The position numbers were made by a program, and so were the translations under genes. Of a DNA stretch of 19,500 bases, positions 1 through 15,054 are shown piece after piece; position 1 is the stretch's first letter, and each line of letters begins with the position of its first letter. Location: the NCBI GenBank assembly GCA_038217285.1, contig JBBQPO010000095.1:1-19500 (forward strand). The letters are read 5' to 3'. The notes beneath the pieces were generated by a model, which had not been told where the DNA came from, made no database searches, and saw nothing but the letters and a program-made list of their open reading frames with translations. The stretch comes from Chthonomonadales bacterium. Lineage in GTDB: Bacteria; Armatimonadota; Chthonomonadetes; Chthonomonadales; Chthonomonadaceae.

Positions 1-84
1 GTTGGAGAGGTCTTGCTCAAAGAGAGCGGCGGCTTCGTAACGCTTCTGTTGGATCTGTTTTCGGGTAAGAATTAAGGTGTTCAT
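1..84 (-). CDS. 5' fragment of a probable IS630-family transposase (HTH region); runs off the window edge
   Basis: Manual translation of the minus strand from ATG at 84 gives MNTLILTRKQIQQKRYEAAALFEQDLSN. This resembles the 'R..AA.LF.QG.S..E(I/V)AR.LGVS' N-terminus of IS630/winged-HTH transposases. It is too short to appear in the ORF track. Confidence 0.6.
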   Translation of the reverse strand, partial: MNTLILTRKQIQQKRYEAAALFEQDLSN

Positions 85-139
85 ACTCACAATACGCAAA
101 CCTGGGCGGTTCGTTGCTAGATCACCTGAAGGTCAATAG
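1..139 (-). mobile_element. Probable left end of an IS630-family insertion sequence
   Basis: The transposase-like start is at 84. The minus strand from 139 reads CTATTGACCTTCAGG, a TA-containing terminus like IS630 ends I recall. Homology with the 1388-1518 leader stops just beside this point. An alternative boundary is the CTAG at 117-120. Confidence 0.45.
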
Positions 140-147
140 GCGGAAGG

Positions 148-278
148 CCCGTATCCGTCTTTCTGAAACGGATACCGAACATTGCGGCACACGCCGGATA
201 ATTTTGGCGATGTACTTCACGAACCTGTCTTGTATCACAGTGTTCTAATCGAAATGGAAGAGTGAAAGCCTCCCATGC
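148..278 (-). ncRNA. Candidate structured cis-regulatory leader, copy A
   Basis: 131 nt, alignable by eye with 1388-1518. Four hairpins are conserved, with compensatory and G-U changes that favour the minus strand. Confidence 0.55.
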
Positions 279-421
279 CGGAGCGCTGACCGATGTTCCG
301 TAAGACACACGACCAGGCGGATCGCGCCAAACAATCAGTCCGCTAATAGACGAAATATGTGCGTGCCAGGTTCCCAAACGTCAGGGGCCTGGTCAAGGCC
401 ATCTCTACAATAAGTGAACAA

Positions 422-437
422 TGCAAGAAACGTGCCA
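422..437 (-). promoter_or_regulatory. Sigma-54 (-24/-12) promoter
   Basis: The minus strand reads TGGCACGTTTCTTGCA, an exact match to the TGGCACG-N4-TTGCW consensus, in intergenic DNA. Confidence 0.75.
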
Positions 438-653
438 CATCGGTCGAAACAACCGACGTAGACGCAAAATCGATCAAATTTGCCAAAAAAACTCTCTCTC
501 ATTTATCCTTGCTCGCCATCTAAGCATCCGACGATGCCCCAGGGATAGGATGGCGGCACGCTTTCAAATAGAGCAAGGCTGTTCACTCACAGAGAAGACA
601 TTTGATCGGCGGCATTCGGATTTATCGGAATACTCCGCCCGTTCGAACGCCAT

Positions 654-696
654 AAATGCAGATGTCCCGGCACACCGTGCCGGGACATCTGCATTT
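654..696 (-). terminator. Perfect 20-bp inverted repeat; probable intrinsic terminator of PEP-CTERM gene 1
   Basis: AAATGCAGATGTCCCGGCAC-acc-GTGCCGGGACATCTGCATTT, 17 nt downstream of the stop codon at 714. Confidence 0.8.
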
Positions 697-713
697 TGCA
701 TCAGGACGACTGC

Positions 714-1358
714 CTATTTGCGGCGGGTGCGGCGGCGAGCGAACGCAGCCCCGGAGACGCCCATACCGAAGAGCATGGCCCAGGTGCCGGGTTCCGGAGT
801 GCTCGGCCCAGCAGGTCGGTTGTTCGGCCCGGTCACGAAGGACTGGTTGCCTGCCGGGGAGCTGTTGCTGTTCTTGGTCGAGTTGGCGGCGAAGGCGGTG
901 AAGTCTCCAGCGCCGTTGACCGGGTTGAGCGAGTGGATCAGCACGGTTCCGATGAACTGTGAACCGGCGCCCGAGTTTACGAATGTCGTCCCGTTGTACG
1001 TGAGGGAGACGTTCGGCTGCAAGGCATCGTCACCGGCCAACTGGGCCGATCCGGGCGGGTTAAGCCCCAGGTTCTGTACCGTAACATTGTACGACGTTCC
1101 GCCACCACCGGTGGTGAACGTGGGACTGTTCCCGCCACCCGTTATCAGGCCGTTGAAGTCATAGAAGGTGAAAATATCCCCGGCGGAGGTGCGAGTGTCC
1201 GCCCCAAGGAAGAGTTGATAGTTGTAAACGATGTTCCCGGCCGGGCCTGTGGCGGAGATGAAGACAGGCGTAATCGACTGGGCGATGGCGGCGCCAGCAC
1301 CTACGACCGTCAGGGCCGCCAAGGCGACCGTGCGGGATAAGAGACAAGAAATCTTCAT
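714..1358 (-). CDS. PEP-CTERM sorting domain-containing secreted protein 1 (214 aa)
   Basis: Signal peptide MKISCLLSRTVALAALTVVGAGAAIA, a Gly/Ser/Thr/Asn-rich body, and the C-terminal TPEPGTWAMLFGMGVSGAAFARRRTRRK. The AAGGGA RBS supports the start at 1358 rather than 1394. Confidence 0.93.
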   Translation of the reverse strand: MKISCLLSRTVALAALTVVGAGAAIAQSITPVFISATGPAGNIVYNYQLFLGADTRTSAGDIFTFYDFNGLITGGGNSPTFTTGGGGTSYNVTVQNLGLNPPGSAQLAGDDALQPNVSLTYNGTTFVNSGAGSQFIGTVLIHSLNPVNGAGDFTAFAANSTKNSNSSPAGNQSFVTGPNNRPAGPSTPEPGTWAMLFGMGVSGAAFARRRTRRK

Positions 1359-1387
1359 GGATAATTTTCCCTTTACTATTCGATGAT

Positions 1388-1518
1388 CCCACACCCGTCT
1401 TTCCTACAACGGAGCGGGACGCTGCTACACGCGCCAGAATAATTTTTGGCTGTATTCGTCCTGAACGTGTCTGTGTAACAGAGTTCTTATTGTGCGGGAG
1501 AGTTGCCCACTCCCGTGC
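1388..1518 (-). ncRNA. Candidate structured cis-regulatory leader, copy B, in the 5' region of PEP-CTERM gene 1
   Basis: Homologous to 148-278. It ends about 30 nt before the ATG at 1358. Confidence 0.55.
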
Positions 1519-1598
1519 AACAATGGTGCTATTGCGTTGACCTGATACAGAGTGTCGATACCTGAAAAAAAGACCAGGACAAGAACCTGCACTGTTTC

Positions 1599-1675
1599 GT
1601 GCCTCGGATGGAGAGGCACAAAGCCTGACATGCGATGCTCAAGGACCATCCTTCGTAGAATCCGATGGATTCTAC
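1599..1675 (-). terminator. Two hairpins at the 3' end of PEP-CTERM gene 2 (possible terminator or RNA-stabilising stems)
   Basis: GTAGAATCC-gat-GGATTCTAC (1655-1675, overlapping the stop codon) and GTGCCTC-N7-GAGGCAC (1599-1619). Neither has an immediate U tract. Confidence 0.45.
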
Positions 1676-2352
1676 TTGCGGCGGTTGCGGCGGCGAGCGA
1701 AGGCCACACCGGAGACACCCATGCCGAAGAGCATAGCCCAGGTGCCGGGTTCCGGAGTACCGACGACGCGAGCGCCAGCGCCTCCTGCTTGCGGAGTCGG
1801 GGAGCCGCCATTATTGAACAGGCCCGGCAACGCGCGCAGTTGGAAGTTGATCGTCGGCACACCGGCGGCGGTGAAGACATAGTTGAAGACTTCGGCCTGT
1901 CCGTCCGGCGTACTTACCAGATTGTCGTAGGTATTCGCCAGCGTGTTGGTCGTCTGCGTCAAATGCCCACTCAGCGTACCGGTCACGAACTGGGTGATCG
2001 CGCTGTATCCAGCCAGTGGCGCTCCGGCGGCATTGGAGGGGGTCAGCGTGACCGCAACCTTGTAGGGGAAGTTGAAAACTCCCACAGTGAGATCGGTCGA
2101 GTTGGAGGTACTGTTCGTCGCAAACTGATACAGACTTATCTGCGTACCGCTCGGCGGCGCATAATTGCCCGTGGAGATGATATCGTTGATACCAAGCGCT
2201 GCGGTCGTATCGACCGAGAACGCATTGACGACATGTCCGCCCGCAGGAGTTTCGAAATCCGTGGTGTAGTTGAAATATTGAGCGTTGGCGTGCTGCGTGG
2301 CACCCATTAGAACCGCTCCAGCGGCCAGCAGTGTTAAACTAAGTTTACGCAT
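1672..2352 (-). CDS. PEP-CTERM sorting domain-containing secreted protein 2 (226 aa)
   Basis: Signal peptide MRKLSLTLLAAGAVLMGATQHANA, C-terminal TPEPGTWAMLFGMGVSGVAFARRRNRRK, AAGGAG RBS. Confidence 0.95.
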   Translation of the reverse strand: MRKLSLTLLAAGAVLMGATQHANAQYFNYTTDFETPAGGHVVNAFSVDTTAALGINDIISTGNYAPPSGTQISLYQFATNSTSNSTDLTVGVFNFPYKVAVTLTPSNAAGAPLAGYSAITQFVTGTLSGHLTQTTNTLANTYDNLVSTPDGQAEVFNYVFTAAGVPTINFQLRALPGLFNNGGSPTPQAGGAGARVVGTPEPGTWAMLFGMGVSGVAFARRRNRRK

Positions 2353-2649
2353 AGGTCACTTCTCCTTGAGTATTTCCATATTCTGTGCGAAAGGTAGCGG
2401 ACAAGCACGCTATCGGCGCGAATTGTTACGCAGTCATGAAGGATCAGGGCAGGCACTTATAATACCCCATAATAAGGAATCGCTTCCCTGCCTGCGGAGC
2501 CCCACCTGTAGCTCTTGAGAGCGATGAACAGCAAACACACTCCTAGTCTACCCAATATACACGGGCAAACTGGCATAGAGTTCACTTCATCACAAAAAAT
2601 CCCGTGTTCCTACCGAAAAATCGGCATTCGCACCTCTCAACCATGTACT

Positions 2650-2665
2650 TGCACAAACTGTGCCA
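2650..2665 (-). promoter_or_regulatory. Probable sigma-54 promoter for PEP-CTERM gene 2
   Basis: The minus strand reads TGGCACAGTTTGTGCA, with correct GG-N10-GC spacing, about 300 nt upstream of the ATG at 2352. Confidence 0.6.
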
Positions 2666-2920
2666 GATTCGCCAAAACGGCTGTTCTGGACCGATAATTT
2701 TCAAAACTATCGTCAGAGGGCCGCAAATGGCGTCCCTACCTCCTCCCTTTCGAAGCGCCTCAGACACTCAGAAGCGGCAATGGCGCAGGGCTCCGGCGCG
2801 TCCCGCCCTCGCAATGAACTTTCTTTCCGCCTCGCGCGTCCATTTGAGTATGAAATCCCTGGATCGCTCCCGTCACTGAACTCTATGAGCGGGCGTCCAC
2901 GAACACGCCGTAACATGGAC

Positions 2921-2950
2921 TTGACATCCTGTGTCAAAGTGGGTTAGGAT
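2921..2950 (+). promoter_or_regulatory. Sigma-70-type promoter of the DUF1549 operon with an overlapping palindrome
   Basis: TTGACA (2921-2926), 18-nt spacer, TAGGAT (2945-2950). The -35 is half of the palindrome TTGACA-N5-TGTCAA. GGGAGG RBS at 2972-2977. Confidence 0.6.
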
Positions 2951-2985
2951 TACAAGCGTATTATACGTATAGGGAGGTTGATCGT

Positions 2986-5241
2986 ATGCAACTGTGGAAA
3001 GCCGTTCTTCCACTGGCGCTCGTCGGGTTTACACTGCCGGTGGGCGCACAGAAGCATGGGCAGACAAGGCATCGACCGGTCGTCGCCAAAGCGCCTGTGG
3101 TCATGGTTCTGCCCGATCCTTCTGTGCCAGCCCGCGTCGAGTTCCTGCGAGATGTCGCTCCGATCCTGGATCGCGGCGGCTGCTCCGGCTCCCAGTGCCA
3201 TGGCAAGTTCGGCGGACGCGGCGGTTTTCAGATTTCGCTGCTGACGCTCAGCCCGGAAGACGACTTCGAACCGATCGTCTATGGCGCCAGAGGCCGCCGC
3301 ATCAACTTCACTGCTCCCGAAAAGAGTCTCCTGTTGCTGAAAGCCGTTGGAGCCGCGCCGCATGTCGGCGGGAAGCGCTTCGCCATCGGCTCGTACCAGT
3401 ATAACACCCTGCTGCGCTGGATCAAACAGGGCGCGCCGTTCGAGGATAAAGATCCGCGCCTGACCACCCTGCGCGTGGTACCCGACAAACTGCAGCTTGC
3501 AAAGGCCAGGATGCCGCGCCAGTTGAAGGTGATGGCGACCTATACCGACGGCAGCACCCGCGATGTGACCCGGCAGACAGCGTTCCAGTCCACCAACGGC
3601 GCGGTGTTGGATGTCTCGCAGAACGGCGTCGTGAACGGTCTGCGCTGGGGCGGCGGCGCGGTCGTCGTGCGCTATCTCGGCACCGTCGCGGCCTGCTTCG
3701 TGACCCTGCCGCAGGTTCGCAAGGGCGCCTACCCCGAAACTCCCAACAACAACATCGTCGATAAGTATGTTTTCGACAACCTCAAGCAGTTGAACGTCGT
3801 GCCGTCCAGCCTGAGCGACGACACCGAGTTTCTGCGCCGCGTCACGCTCGATACCCTCGGACGTCTGCCCTCCCCGGACGAAGTGGTCGCCTTCCAGGCC
3901 GATGGTAGCCCCACCAAACGCGCCAAGATGATCGACAGCCTGCTGGAAAGACCGGAGTATGTCGATTTCCGAACGCTGCGCCTGGCCGACCTGCTTCGTG
4001 TCAACCCGCGTAAGTTCGGCAACGGCAACGGCGCACTGGCCGACCGCAGCGCAGTCCTGTTCTACGACTGGATCTGGAACAGTGTCGCACAGAACCAGCC
4101 CTGGGACCAGTTCGTGCACGATCTGATCGAGGCGCGCGGCAGTACCTATCAGAACGGCCCCGCAAACTTCTACCGCGTCGAGCGCGGCGCGAACGACCGC
4201 ATGGAGAACATCGGGCAGGCCTTTCTCGGTGTGCGTATGTCTTGCGCCCGCTGCCATAAACATCCGTTCGATCGCTGGACCACCGACAACTACTGGAACT
4301 TCGCTTCCTTCATGGGGAAGGTGAACGCCCGCGGCGGCAAACTGAACAACGAGGAGATCATCGGCTACGACGGCGGCGCACGCGTCGTCAACCAGTCGGT
4401 AAACGGCAAGAACCGGGGCCGTATCGCGCCCTGCACCTATCTGGGTGAGACGGAACCCGCGAAAGAGACGCCGGACATGATCGCCTCTCTCGCGGACTGG
4501 ATGATCGACACGAAAAACCCGTTCTTCGCCCGCGCCACCGTGAATCGGCTCTGGTCCTACTACTTCGTGCGCGGCGTCATCCATCCGGTGGACGACATGC
4601 GCGCGACCACCCCGGAGAGCGTTCCCGGCCTGCTCGACGCGCTGGCGAAAGAGATGGTAGACCACAAATACGATATGAAATATGTCACACGCCTGATTCT
4701 TAACTCACGCACCTACCAACTTTCTGCCGTTCCCAATGCGTCCAATGAGAAGGACGACCGTTTCTTCTCACACTACTTCCCGAAGGCGATGCCCGCCGAA
4801 GCGCTGATAGATGCGGTGAACCAGGCGACAGGAGCGCCGGAGAAGTTCGGCTCGTTCCCGGAGCGGTCGCGCGCTGTGCAGGCCGAGGTACCGAACGGCT
4901 CGCAGTTCCTGAGCGCCTTCGGGCAGTCGCATCGGGAGTTTCTGGCGGACATCGACCCCAAGCTGGAGCCGAACCTCGTTCAGACGCTGATGATGATCAA
5001 CTCGCCGTACATCGAAAACAAGATTCGGCAGGGCACCACGGTCAACAACGAGGTCGCCCGCTCCGACACAGACGAGGCGCTGGTGCGCGGGCTCTATATG
5101 CGCACGTTCTGCCGCCCGCCGAACCCGACCGAGCTCTCCAAATCGGTCGCCATTCTCAAACTGACGCCGGATCGCCACGAAGGCGCGCAAGATCTGCTCT
5201 GGGCGCTGCTCTCGGCCCGCGAATTCTTTTTCAATCACTGA
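2986..5241 (+). CDS. DUF1549/DUF1553 (Planctomycete PSCyt2/PSD1-type) exported protein with an Ig-like domain
   Basis: Signal peptide; 'F.RDV.PIL...GCSGSQCHG...GRGGFQISL'; Ig-like 'QLKVMATYTDGSTRDVT'; DUF1549 motifs 'DDTEFLRRVTLDTLGRLP' and 'FLGVRMSCARCHKHPFDRWT'; DUF1553 motif 'NPFFARATVNRLWSYYF.RG.I.PVDD'; terminal 'DLLWALL...EFFFNH'. Confidence 0.93.
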   Translation: MQLWKAVLPLALVGFTLPVGAQKHGQTRHRPVVAKAPVVMVLPDPSVPARVEFLRDVAPILDRGGCSGSQCHGKFGGRGGFQISLLTLSPEDDFEPIVYGARGRRINFTAPEKSLLLLKAVGAAPHVGGKRFAIGSYQYNTLLRWIKQGAPFEDKDPRLTTLRVVPDKLQLAKARMPRQLKVMATYTDGSTRDVTRQTAFQSTNGAVLDVSQNGVVNGLRWGGGAVVVRYLGTVAACFVTLPQVRKGAYPETPNNNIVDKYVFDNLKQLNVVPSSLSDDTEFLRRVTLDTLGRLPSPDEVVAFQADGSPTKRAKMIDSLLERPEYVDFRTLRLADLLRVNPRKFGNGNGALADRSAVLFYDWIWNSVAQNQPWDQFVHDLIEARGSTYQNGPANFYRVERGANDRMENIGQAFLGVRMSCARCHKHPFDRWTTDNYWNFASFMGKVNARGGKLNNEEIIGYDGGARVVNQSVNGKNRGRIAPCTYLGETEPAKETPDMIASLADWMIDTKNPFFARATVNRLWSYYFVRGVIHPVDDMRATTPESVPGLLDALAKEMVDHKYDMKYVTRLILNSRTYQLSAVPNASNEKDDRFFSHYFPKAMPAEALIDAVNQATGAPEKFGSFPERSRAVQAEVPNGSQFLSAFGQSHREFLADIDPKLEPNLVQTLMMINSPYIENKIRQGTTVNNEVARSDTDEALVRGLYMRTFCRPPNPTELSKSVAILKLTPDRHEGAQDLLWALLSAREFFFNH

Positions 5242-5290
5242 AATCCTGATATCACAATCACTGAAATGCTGAACTGGGGAGGTTGGTTCT

Positions 5291-6616
5291 ATGGAGTACA
5301 ACTGGCTGAGCGACTGCGAGAAGTTTCATCGGCGGGACGTGCTGCGGGTAGGCGTATTGAGCCTGCTCGGGCTCTCACTTTCGAAATACTATGCCCTGGC
5401 GGACAGCGCGAAAAAAGCGCAGCCGGCGGGAGGCCATACGACAGGCACGGCCGACTCCGTGGTCTTGATCTGGCTGGCCGGTGGGCCGAGCCATATCGAC
5501 ACCTTCGACCCCAAGCCGGACTCGCCTTTGGAGATTCGGGGTAAGTTCAACGCGATCCCGACCTCCGCTCCCGGCATTCAGTTGTCCGAACATCTGCCCA
5601 AACTCGCCGGTCAGATGGACAAAGTCTGCGCCGTCCGCAGCGTGACCAGCCCGACCGGCGCGCATGAGATCGGCACGCACTATATGCTGACCGGCTTCCT
5701 GCCGCTGCCCGGCTTCGCAGTTCCCTCGTACGGGGCGGTCGCTTCCAGCCTCCTCGGCCCCCGCAGCGCCCTGCCCCCCTACATCTCGATTCAGCAGCCC
5801 GGCAGCGAGATGGGAGCGGGTTTCCTCGGCGCTTCTCTGAACCCGTTCTATCCCGGCGGCGATCCGGCCAATCCGAACTTCCGCGTCCGCGACCTCGACA
5901 GGCCCGCCAACATGACGGAGCAGAAACAGGCGCGCCGCAAAGAGCTGCGCGAAACCGTCGATGCGGCGTTCCGACAGCATGAGAAGGGTTCCGATACAGC
6001 CCGCGCCGTAGACTCGTTCTACAACCGCGCCTACACGCTGCTCTCCTCCACCGAGGCCCGCGCCGCGTTCGACCTCTCGAAAGAGAAGCCGGAACTGCGC
6101 GACTCCTATGGCCGCAACAACTTCGGGCAGAGCCTGCTGCTGGCCCGGCGCTTGACGGAGGCAGGTGTGCGCTTCTCGACCGTCACGCTCGGCGGCTGGG
6201 ACAACCACTCCAACATCTTCAATTCGCTGGGCAACGGGCATCTCAATATGTTCGACCAGAGTTTCTCCACCTTTATCGCCGATCTGGCGCAGCGCGGACT
6301 GCTGCAGCGCACGCTAGTGGTCGTCATGGGCGAGTTTGGACGCACCCCGATCATCAACCGCGACGCGGGACGCGACCACTACCCGCGCGTCTTCTCGATG
6401 CTCATGGCAGGCGGAGGCGTCAAGGGCGGAACGGTCGTCGGCTCGTCCGATGCCAAGGGCATGGAGCCTGCGTCCGACCCGGTGCGCCCGGAAGACATCG
6501 CCGCGACGATCTACCACTGTCTCGGCATCGACTATACCCAGAGCATCGCTTCACCCGAGGGCGTCCGTATCACCCTTGCCCGCGGCGGCTCGCATATCCA
6601 CAAGGCGCTGGTATGA
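5291..6616 (+). CDS. DUF1501 family protein with a twin-arginine-type leader
   Basis: RRDVLRVG leader; motifs GGPSHIDTFDPKP, YGRNNFGQSLLLARRL.EAGVRF, GWDNH, GEFGRTP, GRDHY; GGGAGG RBS. Confidence 0.95.
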   Translation: MEYNWLSDCEKFHRRDVLRVGVLSLLGLSLSKYYALADSAKKAQPAGGHTTGTADSVVLIWLAGGPSHIDTFDPKPDSPLEIRGKFNAIPTSAPGIQLSEHLPKLAGQMDKVCAVRSVTSPTGAHEIGTHYMLTGFLPLPGFAVPSYGAVASSLLGPRSALPPYISIQQPGSEMGAGFLGASLNPFYPGGDPANPNFRVRDLDRPANMTEQKQARRKELRETVDAAFRQHEKGSDTARAVDSFYNRAYTLLSSTEARAAFDLSKEKPELRDSYGRNNFGQSLLLARRLTEAGVRFSTVTLGGWDNHSNIFNSLGNGHLNMFDQSFSTFIADLAQRGLLQRTLVVVMGEFGRTPIINRDAGRDHYPRVFSMLMAGGGVKGGTVVGSSDAKGMEPASDPVRPEDIAATIYHCLGIDYTQSIASPEGVRITLARGGSHIHKALV

Positions 6617-7905
6617 TGCAGACGTTCTTCAGGACGAGCAAAATGCGATGCCCTAGGATATCGGCAAGCCTCGCCGCCGTGCTCGGACTGAGTCTGGCGG
6701 CAGGAGGGCAGACCAAAACGCCCCCTGCCGCCGGACAGCCACAGTCCGGCAAGGCTCCCGCAATGAGAGGGGCGACGCAGGCGAAACCTCCGGTGACCGC
6801 ACCGGGTAAGGCTGTTGCTCCTGCTCCAGGCCCGACCAAACCGGGGGACCCTGCCAAACCGACTGGAGACAAGCCGCTCGACGCCTCCGCCTCCGTCATC
6901 GTGAAGCCGAATCGGCCGCTCGGGGAGATCACAGCGCTGGCCTATAGCCCGGACGGCAAACGTCTGGCAGTCGGAACCTCCGGACAGGTCGTGCTGTACG
7001 ACGCAGCCACCTGGCAGGTCGTCGGCACCTTCCGACAGGTGCAAGACGGTGTGCGATCCCTGGCGTTTCATCCGAACGGACAGCTCCTCGCTATCGGCAG
7101 CGGACAGCCGGGCCTGACGGGCGCTACCGTTGTTTGGGACACCACCAATGCCGTCAAGCCGAACGTTCTGCCGAACCAGTACGATACCATCGAAGCGGTC
7201 GCCTTCGCCCCGGACGGCAACGAACTGCTCATCGGCTCCAACGACAAAAAAGTGCGCTGTTTCACCTCCCTGACCACCGACGACGGCCCGATCCTCGATG
7301 CCCACAACGACCGCGTCCAGGCCGTCGCCTTCTCCCCCAAGAGCGGATTCATCTTCCTGACGGCAGGCCTGGACCGCATCGTCAAGGTGTGGGACCAGCA
7401 GAAGGTGGTCAACGTCATCAACTTCGACCAGAGCGAAGGGGGAATCACCGGTCTGGCTTTCCTTTCCAACGGCAGCCAGTTCATCGGCTCCAGCCTAGAC
7501 GGCAAACTCTACTGGTGGGGCGTCAACCACGACGACCGTAAAAACGCGTGGAGCGGCTATCACTACCGAACCACGATGGCGCATCCCGGTGGAGTCTACA
7601 CGCTCGGCCGCTCCGCAAACGGCCAGCGTATCATCACCGGCGGCGCGGACAAGATGGTCAACGTCTGGAACGCCGACAACGGCGGCAAGGTTCGGGCGTT
7701 CAAAGACTCTCCTCAGCCGGTCTACGCTGCCGCCCTCACTCCGGATGGCAAGACCGCCGTCGCCGGAGGCCGCGAAGGCATCGTCTATGTCTGGGATGTC
7801 GAGGCGAACAAACTGCTGTCCGGATTCGCTCCCCCCGCCCTGCCCGCTCCCCCGGCCCCAGCCATCAAGACGGCACGCAAAACGACGCGCAAGAAACGAA
7901 CCTAA
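6613..7905 (+). CDS. Exported WD40-repeat (beta-propeller) protein with a Pro/Ala/Lys-rich N-terminal linker
   Basis: Repeated 'LA(Y/F)SPDG..LA.G...V..WD' units. ATGA overlap with the DUF1501 stop; an alternative start is at 6643. A hydrophobic signal segment is present. Confidence 0.92.
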   Translation: MMQTFFRTSKMRCPRISASLAAVLGLSLAAGGQTKTPPAAGQPQSGKAPAMRGATQAKPPVTAPGKAVAPAPGPTKPGDPAKPTGDKPLDASASVIVKPNRPLGEITALAYSPDGKRLAVGTSGQVVLYDAATWQVVGTFRQVQDGVRSLAFHPNGQLLAIGSGQPGLTGATVVWDTTNAVKPNVLPNQYDTIEAVAFAPDGNELLIGSNDKKVRCFTSLTTDDGPILDAHNDRVQAVAFSPKSGFIFLTAGLDRIVKVWDQQKVVNVINFDQSEGGITGLAFLSNGSQFIGSSLDGKLYWWGVNHDDRKNAWSGYHYRTTMAHPGGVYTLGRSANGQRIITGGADKMVNVWNADNGGKVRAFKDSPQPVYAAALTPDGKTAVAGGREGIVYVWDVEANKLLSGFAPPALPAPPAPAIKTARKTTRKKRT

Positions 7906-12061: not shown

Positions 12062-12463
12062 ATGGAGCAGGAAAAGCCACCCCTCGGGGAGCATGAACTG
12101 GAGGTCTTACGCTACATCGATACGCACGGCCCCATCACTGCTCGGGACGTCGTAGAAGCGGTGGGCCAGGAGCGGAATTTGGCGCGCACTACGGTTCTTA
12201 CCGTGGTCGAGCGACTGCGCAAAAAAGGCTACTTAAAGCGCAGGCGCAACCGGGAAGGCGTCTTCGTCTATACCTCCTCCGAGCCCCAGGCCGAGCTGAT
12301 GCAGGACCTTGTCCGGCAGTTCGTCGAGAAGATGCTGGGTGGGGCGGTGTCGCCGGTGGTCGCCTATCTCGCCTCGGTGAAACGTCTGCCGGAGGAGGAT
12401 CTGGCCGAGATGCAGAAACTGGTCGATGAGCTCAAAGCCGGGCAGGACGAGGAGAAGCCATGA
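12062..12463 (+). CDS. BlaI/MecI/CopY family transcriptional repressor
   Basis: 'LGEHELEVL...GPITARDV...LARTTVLTVVERLRKKGYLKR' winged helix plus a C-terminal dimerisation region. ATGA overlap with the M56 gene. Confidence 0.95.
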   Translation: MEQEKPPLGEHELEVLRYIDTHGPITARDVVEAVGQERNLARTTVLTVVERLRKKGYLKRRRNREGVFVYTSSEPQAELMQDLVRQFVEKMLGGAVSPVVAYLASVKRLPEEDLAEMQKLVDELKAGQDEEKP

Positions 12464-15054
12464 ATTTGCCGGCCTGGATAGCGGGGTGGGAGAGAGCCTC
12501 GGTCGCCTGGGCCGGGGGCCTCGCGCATGCCTGCTGGCAGGGCGGAATAGCGCTGCTGGTCGTCTGGCTGTTATGTCAGGGATTCCCTGCCATGTCCCCC
12601 ACGCTGCGCGCCTGGCTATGGCGATTGGCCTATTTGAAGCTTGTCCTCACTCTCTTACTGCCAACTGTGTCGGTGCCAATTCTTCCTGCCGCTGCCGTCT
12701 CTTCTGCCATCGTGGCCTCGCCCCTGGCGGATCTGCCGTCCACGCAGGTCGTCCCGGTCCCTGGGGACGCTCCTGAGTCCCCTTCTGTGCTGTCGGCGGT
12801 CCCCCGCCCTACCGTCGCTTCTTCGCCTGCACCACTCCCTCGACCGGGTTGGACGTTCTGGCTGTTACTCGCCTGGGGGATGGGGGTCGTCTGGTGCCTG
12901 GTCCGGGTGGCGGGCGAGTGGATCGCCGCCGGCTGGCTGCGCGGTCTGTCGGAACCGCTTCAGGACGACGCTCTCACTTCCTGTTGCCTCGAACTCTCGG
13001 AGCGTCTCGGACTGCGCGATCCGCCGCGTCTGCTGGTTTCCGATGGGGCCGGCAGTCCGGTTCTCCTGGGCGGCGCGAATCCGGTCATCATCTTGCCGCT
13101 GGCGCTCTTGAGCGAATGCTCCCGTCCGGAGTTGGAGATCGTTATCGCGCATGAGTTGGCACATCGCAGCCGTTGCGACCTGCTCTGGGGCTGGATCCCC
13201 GCAATCGGTCATGCCCTCTTCTTCTTTTTTCCGCTGGAGTGGCTGGCGGCGCATGAGTATCGCCTGGCGCAGGAGATGGCCTGCGACGAGCTGGCAATCC
13301 GTACCTCCCGCGCGCGCGTCGGCGACTACGGCGACGCACTGCTCAAAGTGGCGGCAAGGCACCGCCCCAACCTTCAGTCTCGACTCGTCACCATCGGCAT
13401 CGTCGAATCGTCGCAGATTCTGAAAAGGAGACTACTTGCCATGAAAGAGATGGGTTCGTTCCCGGCACGGCCGGGCGCCGTCGTCACCGTCATCGTCGCA
13501 ATAGGATTGGTCGGCTGCCTACCCTGGCAGCTCACACCGAGGGCGTTCGCCAATGTCACGTCGTCGGCCAGCAACGGCGCGGCGCACAGGGCCGCTGCGG
13601 GGGAGCCCGATTCCGCCTACCGTGACCCGCTCGACCTGGCGTTGACACCGGAGAACGGCAGCGGCCTGCGCTACCGCCCGAAAGCCGGAGAGACCTATCT
13701 CTATGCGGTCAAGATCGAGACGACGGAAGGCGACACGACCGAAACCATGAGCGGCAACGCGACCTACCACTGCCGCGCCGCCGACGAAAACGGGTTTGTC
13801 CTGACCTGCGGCGGGAGTCTGATACCGGTACGCCGGACCGTCTCCGGAGGGGGCGTGCCCGGATTCCCGTTCCCAAGCCTGCGCGCCTTTGGCTTCGGCG
13901 GAATGGGCTTTCCGCACCTCTTCGCGGGGCCGAACGAGATCAAGATCGACGGACAGGGACATCTCCTGAGCACCAGGGGCGAGACACCTCTACCGCGCGC
14001 CCTCGGAGATCTGTCACAGCTTATCGTGGAGACTCTGCCGTCGGACGGCGCCTCCTGGGAGGTTCAGAACGGCTGCGTGATCGTTCTGCAGGAGGAGCAT
14101 TCTTTGTCCCCCTTCTCGCATTTCGCCCGCGTCGAGAAGCGCAGCCTTCCGGCTTCGGAGACCCTCTCCTACACGCTCGGTTCGATCACAGGCAATCTGG
14201 TGCAGATCAACAAGCACTACGAGATGCGGACCAACGAGCGCTCCTTCGGTGGACCCACATTGCAGATGACGGGCGACGGCAAAGTGGCCTTTGATCGCAA
14301 ACTGGGGATGCCGCGCACGATGGAGTTCAAGGTGACGTTGGTGGAGCAACCTGACCGCACGACGACGACCCGGATACCGGTCACCGTGACGTACCGCCTG
14401 CTGGAAGGAGACGAGCGGGAGAAAGCGCTGCATCCGCCGGCTCCGGTACCGCCGGAGCGGAAGGCCTTTGCCGAAACGGAGTTGACGTCGGCTCTGTCCG
14501 ATCTGCAGTCGCCAAACGCCTTTAAAGTCATGGGCGCGGCCGATAAACTGGCTGGCGCGCTGCCGACCGGGGATCCACGCCCGGTAGAGCGCGCCTTGAT
14601 CGGCGCCCTGGACCATAAAGACGCTTTCGCCCGCCAGAGCGTTGTCAAGGCCCTGGGAACCTGGGGAGGCAAGGCCAGCGTGCCGCCGCTCATCAAACGG
14701 CTGGACGACGAGTCGTTCGCGGTACGATGGGCGGTGTTCGACGTGCTGGGCGCTGCCAAAGATGCGCGTGCCGCAGAGCCCCTCGCGAAGTGGCTGGAGA
14801 AAGACCGGGGATTCGCCTCGAACGCCCTGCGCAAACTGGGCTCCGTCGCCGCGCCTGCGGTCGCAAAACAGCTTGGGGCGAAGGACTGGGGGATGCGTAT
14901 CGATGTCTGCCATCTGCTGAAAGAGATCGGTACAGCGCGCGAAATACCGGCGCTCCAGGCCCTGACGCGCGACGAGAACCGTCTCGTCGCGGATGCCGCT
15001 TCCGAGGCCGTCAAAACGATACAGCAGCGAGTCGACGCGAAGGTCAACCGTTAG
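12460..15054 (+). CDS. BlaR1/MecR1-type M56 metallopeptidase with a C-terminal beta-rich domain and HEAT repeats
   Basis: N-terminal TM helices, HELAH (13150-13164), 'QEMACDELA', 'LKRRL', a further TM segment, then HEAT-like repeats (RQSVVKALG, VRWAVFDVLG, MRIDVCHLLKEIG). Confidence 0.92.
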   Translation: MNLPAWIAGWERASVAWAGGLAHACWQGGIALLVVWLLCQGFPAMSPTLRAWLWRLAYLKLVLTLLLPTVSVPILPAAAVSSAIVASPLADLPSTQVVPVPGDAPESPSVLSAVPRPTVASSPAPLPRPGWTFWLLLAWGMGVVWCLVRVAGEWIAAGWLRGLSEPLQDDALTSCCLELSERLGLRDPPRLLVSDGAGSPVLLGGANPVIILPLALLSECSRPELEIVIAHELAHRSRCDLLWGWIPAIGHALFFFFPLEWLAAHEYRLAQEMACDELAIRTSRARVGDYGDALLKVAARHRPNLQSRLVTIGIVESSQILKRRLLAMKEMGSFPARPGAVVTVIVAIGLVGCLPWQLTPRAFANVTSSASNGAAHRAAAGEPDSAYRDPLDLALTPENGSGLRYRPKAGETYLYAVKIETTEGDTTETMSGNATYHCRAADENGFVLTCGGSLIPVRRTVSGGGVPGFPFPSLRAFGFGGMGFPHLFAGPNEIKIDGQGHLLSTRGETPLPRALGDLSQLIVETLPSDGASWEVQNGCVIVLQEEHSLSPFSHFARVEKRSLPASETLSYTLGSITGNLVQINKHYEMRTNERSFGGPTLQMTGDGKVAFDRKLGMPRTMEFKVTLVEQPDRTTTTRIPVTVTYRLLEGDEREKALHPPAPVPPERKAFAETELTSALSDLQSPNAFKVMGAADKLAGALPTGDPRPVERALIGALDHKDAFARQSVVKALGTWGGKASVPPLIKRLDDESFAVRWAVFDVLGAAKDARAAEPLAKWLEKDRGFASNALRKLGSVAAPAVAKQLGAKDWGMRIDVCHLLKEIGTAREIPALQALTRDENRLVADAASEAVKTIQQRVDAKVNR

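Follow-up and report, generated by a model that had tools for sequence, protein, structure and literature searches.

On contig C95, a 19.5-kb stretch of DNA that was analysed in its entirety (the window), two copies of an RNA domain of approximately 145 nucleotides (nt) are encoded on the minus strand. We consider this domain a genuine, genus-restricted candidate for a cis-regulatory leader RNA. The contig is part of G000, a metagenome-assembled genome (MAG; 6.2 Mb in 459 contigs) of a soil or sediment bacterium of the Armatimonadota. Copy B lies between two genes for PEP-CTERM proteins, downstream of gene 2 and upstream of gene 1, and copy A lies beyond gene 1, next to the end of an insertion sequence (IS). 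In the following, G001 to G004 denote the other genomes of the genus, and L003 and L004 the loci of the copy-B orthologues.

In the explanation that we favour, the element would constitute the 3' domain of an approximately 300-nt structured 5' leader on sigma-54-transcribed mRNAs, and this leader would be that of a single family of small PEP-CTERM surface-protein genes within one Chthonomonadaceae genus. The domain would act in cis on its own mRNA, i.e., on translation initiation, on mRNA lifetime, or on both, and this control would be added to that of transcription by sigma-54 (RpoN) and an NtrC-type activator. We put the probability of a functional cis-acting structured domain at roughly 0.55. 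Transcription as a leader, interconversion of folds and an effect on expression are what we infer from the sequence. The copies and their predicted helices are located as follows.

139-285, minus strand: copy A of the structured leader domain (covariance model matches of 163.1 bits with model R1 and 144.7 bits with model R2)
281-276/189-184, minus strand: helix P0 of copy A
274-270/260-256, minus strand: helix P1 of copy A
245-237/228-221, minus strand: helix P2 of copy A
208-205/196-193, minus strand: helix P3 of copy A
180-166/160-146, minus strand: helix P4 of copy A
1379-1525, minus strand: copy B of the structured leader domain (from covariance model matches, folds and pair counts)
1521-1516/1429-1424, minus strand: helix P0 of copy B
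1514-1510/1500-1496, minus strand: helix P1 of copy B
1486-1478/1470-1463, minus strand: helix P2 of copy B
1450-1447/1436-1433, minus strand: helix P3 of copy B
1420-1406/1400-1386, minus strand: helix P4 of copy B
1481-1473/1430-1422, minus strand: alternative helix Palt of copy B

Homology and common fold of the copies

An earlier note on this DNA had proposed that the segments 148-278 (A) and 1388-1518 (B), which correspond to the covariance model matches 139-285 and 1379-1525, are a duplicated non-coding leader. The element indeed does not code for protein and has the same sense strand as the genes. The homology of both copies is clear from a Smith-Waterman score of 49, compared with 16.6±2.2 for shuffled sequences (maximum 27 in 1000 shuffles; z = 14.8). 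Their identity had been put at approximately two-thirds and is slightly lower, 60-62% in a four-sequence MAFFT alignment; the pairwise alignment has a mean column identity of 80%. The flanks were said not to align. This is correct for the upstream flanks, which score at shuffle level, whereas the 3' flanks differ because an IS is inserted 3' of copy A.

All four hairpins, P1 to P4, are found in the sequence as they had been written down. P1 reads AUGGGAG/CUUCCAU in A and CGGGAG/CUCCCG in B, P2 is formed by GAAC..CUGU/ACAG..GUUC with one C-C pair in B, and P3 (CGCC/GGCG in A, GCCA/UGGC in B) closes a 10-nt loop.

Besides its two copies in G000, which holds exactly these two according to nhmmer and the covariance models R1 and R2, the element is present in two of the four other genomes of the genus, G003 and G001, with one copy each. 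These are orthologous to copy B (L003:1501-1640, minus strand; L004:763-901, plus strand). The covariance model alignment of the four sequences yields a consensus folding energy of -28.4 kcal/mol, compared with -8.7±2.8 kcal/mol for column shuffles (z = -7.1), and a structure conservation index (SCI) of 0.62; none of 300 shuffles reached an energy as low as the observed one. A structure-blind MAFFT alignment leads to much the same values (z = -6.9 and -7.2, SCI = 0.64). The reverse complement gives z = -3.2 and SCI = 0.42, and six 150-column windows from the gene-1 coding alignment range from z = -0.65 to +0.79 with SCI values of 0.13-0.35. Retention of structure despite sequence drift, as had been suggested, is thus seen beyond chance and is strand-specific.

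The single base pairs tell the same. The structure derived from A and B alone is retained in G003 and G001: 95.3% of 107 cells are paired, compared with 32-53% when the partners are slid by one to three columns, and five of the 27 pairs have changed on both sides. A further sequence comes from a contig of run X2, which carries a strain variant of copy B with a divergence of approximately 8%. At least 10 of its listed differences fall on element positions 4-140; mapped by hand, none of these 10 breaks a consensus pair. At least three of those listed lie within pairs that they keep or create, by repair of a C-C mismatch, by G-U to A-U and by G-U to G-C. The repair is the exchange C59 to G (C to G at 1467), which restores the mismatched pair of P2.

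These observations bear on the view that the element is a functionless relic, i.e., an old segmental duplication of a promoter-leader-gene module whose likeness between species reflects nothing but shared ancestry. A relic would agree with the very narrow distribution, with the lack of the element in G002 and G004, where it is evidently dispensable, with a copy A that is now joined to an IS and has no gene, and with the X2 variant, whose listed differences have about the same density in the element (15 in 147 nt) and in its flanks (approximately 8%). Against it, the element is more conserved between species (67-76% nucleotide identity) than the coding sequence behind it (50-58% for gene 1, 43-47% for the protein), and also than the 5' half of the leader (52-61%). 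Moreover, substitutions avoid the breaking of pairs, double changes keep them, and the consensus fold is far beyond shuffles and coding controls and favours the sense strand. The relic thus fits the data poorly, and we hold it to be quite unlikely.

Alternative helices and possible modes of action

Besides the four hairpins, RNAalifold predicts a long-range stem, P0 (GUUGCA/UGUAAC in the B group, CGGCAU/GUGCCG in A), which encloses P1, P2 and P3 to form a four-way junction. P4 follows after a conserved linker, CAGCGUCC, and ends approximately 25 nt before the Shine-Dalgarno (SD) sequence. The consensus of the MAFFT alignment holds a different helix, Palt, in which the 5' half of P2, CUGUUACAC, pairs with the 3' strand of P0, GUGUAGCAG. 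Both arrangements are conserved to a similar extent: P0 and P2 are 91.1% paired (56 cells) with two double changes, and Palt is 91.7% paired (36 cells) with one. In P0, the double changes of copy A lead from U-A to G-C and from U-A/U-G to C-G. In copy A, the exchange at column 102 (A to C) is accompanied by exchanges at both positions with which it can pair, column 7 (U to G) and column 50 (U to G). The energy gap between P0/P2 and Palt, each enforced in turn, is smallest in A (0.5 kcal/mol) and largest in B (4.2), with 1.9 in G003 and 2.0 in G001.

According to these folding models, the conserved and nearly isoenergetic pair of P0 and Palt looks like a conformational switch. The 3' strand GUGYMRCAR would have two possible partners. 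Pairing with the 5' strand of P0 would close the four-way junction and leave P2 intact, pairing with the 5' half of P2 would open both P0 and P2, and some factor would shift the balance between both folds. We assign about half of the probability of a functional domain to such a switch, which makes it a tentative proposal. A more specific version, in which the domain is the sensor of a new riboswitch-like class whose four-way junction flips between P0/P2 and Palt on a metabolite or second messenger of matrix or aggregate formation, is rather unlikely. If true, it would constitute a riboswitch-like post-transcriptional checkpoint on sigma-54-driven PEP-CTERM genes in the Armatimonadota. What the element has in common with riboswitches and bistable leaders is a predicted multi-helix junction within a 5' leader, a strand that can enter either of two mutually exclusive helices, and conservation of the arrangement across species. 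It differs from them by the lack of an Rfam match, of a terminator and of a consistent SD platform, by the variability of its loops and of most junctions, and by its restriction to one genus.

The search for an expression platform within the domain gave negative results. P4 is followed by GGGCCUUCC in A and AUCAUCGAA in B, neither with the U tract of an intrinsic terminator, and the sole call of a terminator scan inside A is the P1 hairpin (273-256) with its weak 5-bp stem. Sequestration of the SD sequence is not indicated either, as its predicted partner differs among B, G003 and G001.

Two main functional rivals have to be weighed against a cis-acting regulatory domain. The first, to which we give a limited chance, is a passive structural leader that senses nothing. 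Its stable hairpins would shield the abundant mRNA of a surface protein against ribonucleases or mark a site for processing; in G000, where both genes would share a transcript, gene 1 would be uncoupled from gene 2 by them. Protection of mRNAs in this way is known from 5' stabilisers such as the ompA leader and from intercistronic hairpins. In common with ompA-type 5' untranslated region (UTR) stabilisers, the element belongs to a long, stable and structured leader before the gene of a secreted structural protein. The whole leader of approximately 300 nt is structured (RNAalifold z = -6.6, SCI = 0.64 for the 5' half; 3 sequences), loops are free to vary while stems are kept, no expression platform was found, and the G000 leader has been retained right from its predicted +1 although promoter and terminator are gone. 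On the other hand, a stabiliser needs stems only. Loops and most junctions of the element are variable, yet the unpaired J2/3 (GAAGAAC-like) and the linker between P0 and P4 are among the best-conserved stretches, and two mutually exclusive helices are both kept. Finally, stabilisers usually reside at the 5' end, whereas the shared domain is the promoter-distal half of the leader.

The second rival is a protein-bound leader of the CsrA type. The repressor would bind to GGA in the P4 loop, in J2/3 and in the SD sequence and thereby block ribosome entry, as in known CsrA-controlled biofilm and flagellin leaders. CsrA is encoded in G000 (89.3 bits, cut-off 27). GGA occurs in the apical loop of P4 in three of the four copies (B, G003 and G001), in the SD sequence of all three copies that retain one, and in J2/3 of B and G001, and the P4 loop lies approximately 35-40 nt upstream of the SD sequence. 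The predicted arrangement of GGA in an upstream hairpin loop and in the SD sequence, together with a surface- or matrix-linked target, resembles that of CsrA/RsmA leaders. Those leaders have no multi-helix junction, and the P4 loop of copy A carries AGA, with no GGA in J2/3. The four to five GGA in approximately 170 nt are mildly above the approximately 2.4 estimated from composition, and P0, P1, P2 and P3 would be left unexplained. We regard this rival as improbable.

Promoters, gene order and the altered loci of G000

Read along the minus strand, a sigma-54-like site (2651-2665) is followed by gene 2, a 313-nt spacer with copy B, gene 1 and a terminator (718-645). Then follow a sigma-54 promoter (437-423), approximately 125 nt of leader, copy A (285-139) and the IS end (138-1). 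The features besides the copies themselves are given below.

1-138, minus strand: IS end just 3' of copy A, terminal ...GGTCAATA; the open reading frame (ORF) of the transposase starts at 84 and runs off the contig
286-411, minus strand: upstream portion of the A leader, from the predicted sigma-54 start up to copy A (placed by the promoter)
423-437, minus strand: sigma-54 (-24/-12) promoter TGGCACGTTTCTTGC, exact TGGCAC-N5-TTGC, approximately 140 nt upstream of copy A
645-718, minus strand: terminator hairpin after gene 1, 14 bp and GC-rich, followed by AUUU (U tract)
714-1358, minus strand: PEP-CTERM gene 1, 214 amino acids (aa), downstream of copy B (PF07589, 24.4 bits, cut-off 20.7; TIGR02595)
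1373-1368, minus strand: SD sequence of gene 1, AAGGGA
1517-1531, minus strand: sigma-54-like string TAGCACCATTGTTGC with one mismatch (GG to AG), overlapping P0 of copy B
1526-1671, minus strand: 5' half of the B leader, structured, directly after the gene-2 stop codon; aligns with the transcribed part of the G003 and G001 leaders
1672-2352, minus strand: PEP-CTERM gene 2, 226 aa, upstream of copy B (PF07589, 24.2 bits; TIGR02595)
2651-2665, minus strand: TGGCACAGTTTGTGC, a sigma-54-like site before gene 2 that deviates at one position of the -12 element

Both genes carry the sorting domain, and an exosortase is encoded in G000 (138.4 bits, cut-off 105.55). The position of copy B close upstream of gene 1 is in line with the earlier description, by whose coordinates it ends 29 nt before the ATG at 1358; our alignment of copy B extends to 20 nt before it. 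The terminator after gene 1 shows a partial likeness to the 3' end of the Rfam family sX6 (26.6 bits, below the gathering score of 40). An assignment as sX6 sRNA was rejected, since the likeness is that of a generic terminator.

The perfect sigma-54 promoter that had been noticed upstream of copy A is an exact match at 423-437. Motifs of the type TGGCAC-N5-TTGC(W) are located upstream of the leader, approximately 140-170 nt before the element in A, G003 and G001, with TGGCACARTTAATGCA in the latter two genomes. In G013, TGGCACTCTTTATGCA occurs in the 330 nt that precede the start of a gene-1 homologue. G000 itself encodes RpoN and an enhancer-binding protein of the NtrC type, the latter with 369.7 bits and thus below the PrsR cut-off of 502.6.

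In G003 and G001, the element is located between the homologues of gene 2 and gene 1 as in G000. There, gene 2 is followed by an inverted repeat that resembles a terminator and shows compensatory changes (TTTTGCGCCTG.../TTTTGCACCTG...), and then by a conserved sigma-54 promoter, GTGGCACARTTAATGCAATA, approximately 320 nt before the ATG of gene 1. It is the position of this promoter that places the element in the promoter-distal (3') half of a predicted leader of approximately 300 nt. The spacer of G000 lacks approximately 260 nt that hold the terminator repeat and the promoter, and resumes almost exactly at the predicted +1. We infer a deletion by which two transcription units were turned into one. 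Copy B of G000 would then probably be read through from gene 2, and the site at 2651-2665 may drive a common transcript of gene 2, copy B and gene 1. It is copy A that shows the normal layout, with a promoter approximately 140 nt upstream, whereas copy B of G000 is without its own. Upstream of gene 2, the sigma-54-like site lies at a distance of approximately 300 nt in G000, and TGGCACGTTTTGTGC at approximately 130 nt in G003; good alignment between both genomes is limited to roughly 100 nt directly before the ATG, so that leader length is not conserved there.

The string at 1517-1531 leads to a further explanation, namely that conservation acts on the DNA, through a degenerate sigma-54 promoter inside the element (TAGCAC-N5-TTGCA), operator sites, or both. 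This string, with its single mismatch, overlaps the 5' end of B, and G003 has a similar one. Yet the mismatch hits the near-invariant GG, G001 has more mismatches, and A has no such string. In addition, TTGCA forms the 5' strand of P0 and covaries with a partner located 90 nt downstream, the better folding of the sense strand relative to the antisense strand is due to G-U pairs, and the predicted sigma-54 promoters of A, G003 and G001 lie upstream. The string is probably not a promoter, and the DNA-level explanation as a whole fits the data poorly and is very improbable.

A comparable transcriptional setting has been documented in Aquincola, where a PEP-CTERM gene is RpoN-dependent (PMC9850573). 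According to that paper, pepA of Aquincola tertiaricarbonis is a small PEP-CTERM gene behind a TGGCAC -24/-12 promoter, and G000 resembles this system by encoding RpoN, an enhancer-binding response regulator and an exosortase. The text of PMC9850573 makes no mention of "untranslated", "UTR" or "leader"; a long and conserved structured leader would be new here. Another perfect sigma-54 motif, TGGCACGATCCTTGCA, is found at G000:C17:24946, approximately 2.4 kb upstream of the exosortase gene (C17:27334-28032) and in the same orientation, a hint that the sigma-54 regulon may extend to the sorting machinery.

Both copies had been described as lying upstream of PEP-CTERM loci. Behind copy A, no such gene is present on the contig, as positions 1-138 are the end of an IS. 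Seven other contigs of the MAG (C301, C166, C416, C248, C236, C226 and C366) carry this segment at their ends, with 98.6-100% identity over 136-146 nt, and C58:22302-22364 is a 64-nt remnant. The word depth of positions 1-138 in run X1 is approximately 88-120, compared with 6.5 in the flank, i.e., roughly 14-18 times higher. Repeats at contig ends, raised word depth and the transposase-like ORF together identify a multicopy IS. The flanks of its copies diverge directly after a terminal TA, and the terminal TA next to copy A aligns with a UA that B, G003 and G001 carry 20 nt upstream of the start codon. It follows that the insertion cut copy A off from its SD sequence and gene.

Searches for the other junction and for the gene once behind copy A were negative: no IS inverted repeat was found at other contig ends, the IS interior is absent from the MAG and the relatives, and no flank resembling a ribosome binding site of a gene formerly behind copy A was found in the MAG. 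Nor does the MAG hold a close gene-1 paralogue that might have been this gene, as C439 is only 30% identical. The 5' part of the A leader (286-411) does not align with the 5' half of the B leader above shuffle level.

The transposase ORF (start 84) is co-oriented with the A leader, and the promoter at 423-437 may now read into it. In a genome of another genus of the family, G018:C671:3492-3630 (L044) comprises 139 nt that are 100% identical to the IS end, also at a contig end, which could reflect a recent IS transfer or a contig shared between bins.

As judged from gene order, both copies of G000 are thus in altered settings, A being severed by the IS and B lying between two cistrons without its own terminator-promoter segment. 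The general co-regulation of surface-protein genes that had been envisaged finds no support, as the element precedes gene-1 orthologues only and A is severed.

Two further gene groups on the plus strand of the window are mentioned for completeness. Positions 2986-7905 encode consecutively a DUF1549/DUF1553 (PSCyt2/PSD1) protein, a DUF1501 protein and a WD40 protein, a set that is typical of Planctomycetota-like genomes and is here found in an Armatimonadota MAG. At 12062-15054, a BlaI-type repressor gene (Penicillinase_R) overlaps the start of a gene for a BlaR1-type M56 peptidase with C-terminal HEAT repeats.

Distribution, novelty and meaning of the element

Rfam 15 holds no family that matches 139-285 or 1379-1525 (cmscan of window 1-3000, E<=10), c-di-GMP-I (RF01051) and c-di-GMP-II (RF01786) included, in agreement with the earlier reading, and L003 and L004 gave 0 matches at E<=1. 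The element matches no known RNA family and is to be placed, as a candidate, among structured cis-regulatory leaders, restricted to one genus.

Covariance model searches covered 101 relatives with R1 and, with R2, all 42 genomes of the family, G004 and G002 once more by themselves, and 151 genomes sampled from the phylum. R2 detected no copy in G002, which is 98% complete, and none in G004, which is 73% complete; both have gene-1 homologues. The other 37 family genomes and 150 genomes of the phylum sample gave no credible match. Pattern scans of one genome per GTDB species and of JGI metagenome contigs yielded no credible further copy, and the other PEP-CTERM genes of G000 are without the element.

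Several weak candidates were inspected and set aside. The matches L005-L011 and L050 either fall within long ORFs (primase-like, EF-Tu-like, 620 aa) or run antisense to them, or have no PEP-CTERM gene downstream. A match in G143 from the phylum sample (22.5 bits), judged from its alignment alone, is not counted as a copy. Of the five loci from the genome scan with IUPAC patterns, two are known Chthonomonadaceae MAGs and three stem from unrelated phyla; the five from the metagenome scan were rejected as chance matches, with best R2 scores of 11.0 and 10.7 bits. Among 14 loci upstream of gene-1 homologues, searched with filters off, only G004:C92 was matched, with 11.6 bits and at the right position. 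It belongs to the closest gene-1 homologue (52%), and its fold keeps only P3- and P4-like hairpins, so it was not accepted as a member. A different contig of the same genome, G004:C290 (L036), starts with GGUGGGACC..., 55 nt before a 54%-identical gene-1 paralogue, and by eye resembles the 3' strand of P4 and the tail. It may represent a further copy cut by the contig end; the covariance model gave no match there.

Two sister species carry orthologues of the element, each ahead of its gene-1 homologue. Many hits with significant covariation, which had been named as support, did not appear, the yield being four sequences and one strain variant, all from one genus. A miniature inverted-repeat transposable element (MITE) or other mobile repeat, which had been named as an alternative, was rejected: two copies in 6.2 Mb share orientation and locus, and those of the relatives are syntenic.

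Several points weigh against a functional cis-acting domain. Four full sequences from three closely related genomes of one genus are too few for a formal (R-scape-type) covariation statistic, and most double changes trace to the single split between A and the B group, so that they may represent one or two events. P0 and Palt could both be conserved merely by the likeness of their 5' strands, UUGCAC and UUACAC. Loops and junctions are variable with no obvious ligand pocket, and no expression platform is evident, neither a terminator nor a consistent SD partner. The start sites are predicted from promoter motifs alone. Finally, the element is dispensable for the gene family, since G002 lacks it and G004:C92 keeps only the P3- and P4-like hairpins.

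Studies of PEP-CTERM proteins and exosortases have centred on transcription, i.e., on RpoN and PrsK/PrsR. Few regulatory RNAs have, to our knowledge, been described for the Armatimonadota, and full-text literature searches, judged by titles and the beginnings of abstracts, found no RNA motif tied to PEP-CTERM genes. The reach of the finding is limited to one genus, with an element that close relatives can dispense with and with both G000 copies in rearranged settings. Within this range, a conserved structured leader would, as far as these searches go, be an unreported post-transcriptional layer in the control of PEP-CTERM matrix and surface proteins, and its mutually exclusive conserved helices provide a concrete hypothesis that is open to mutagenesis.

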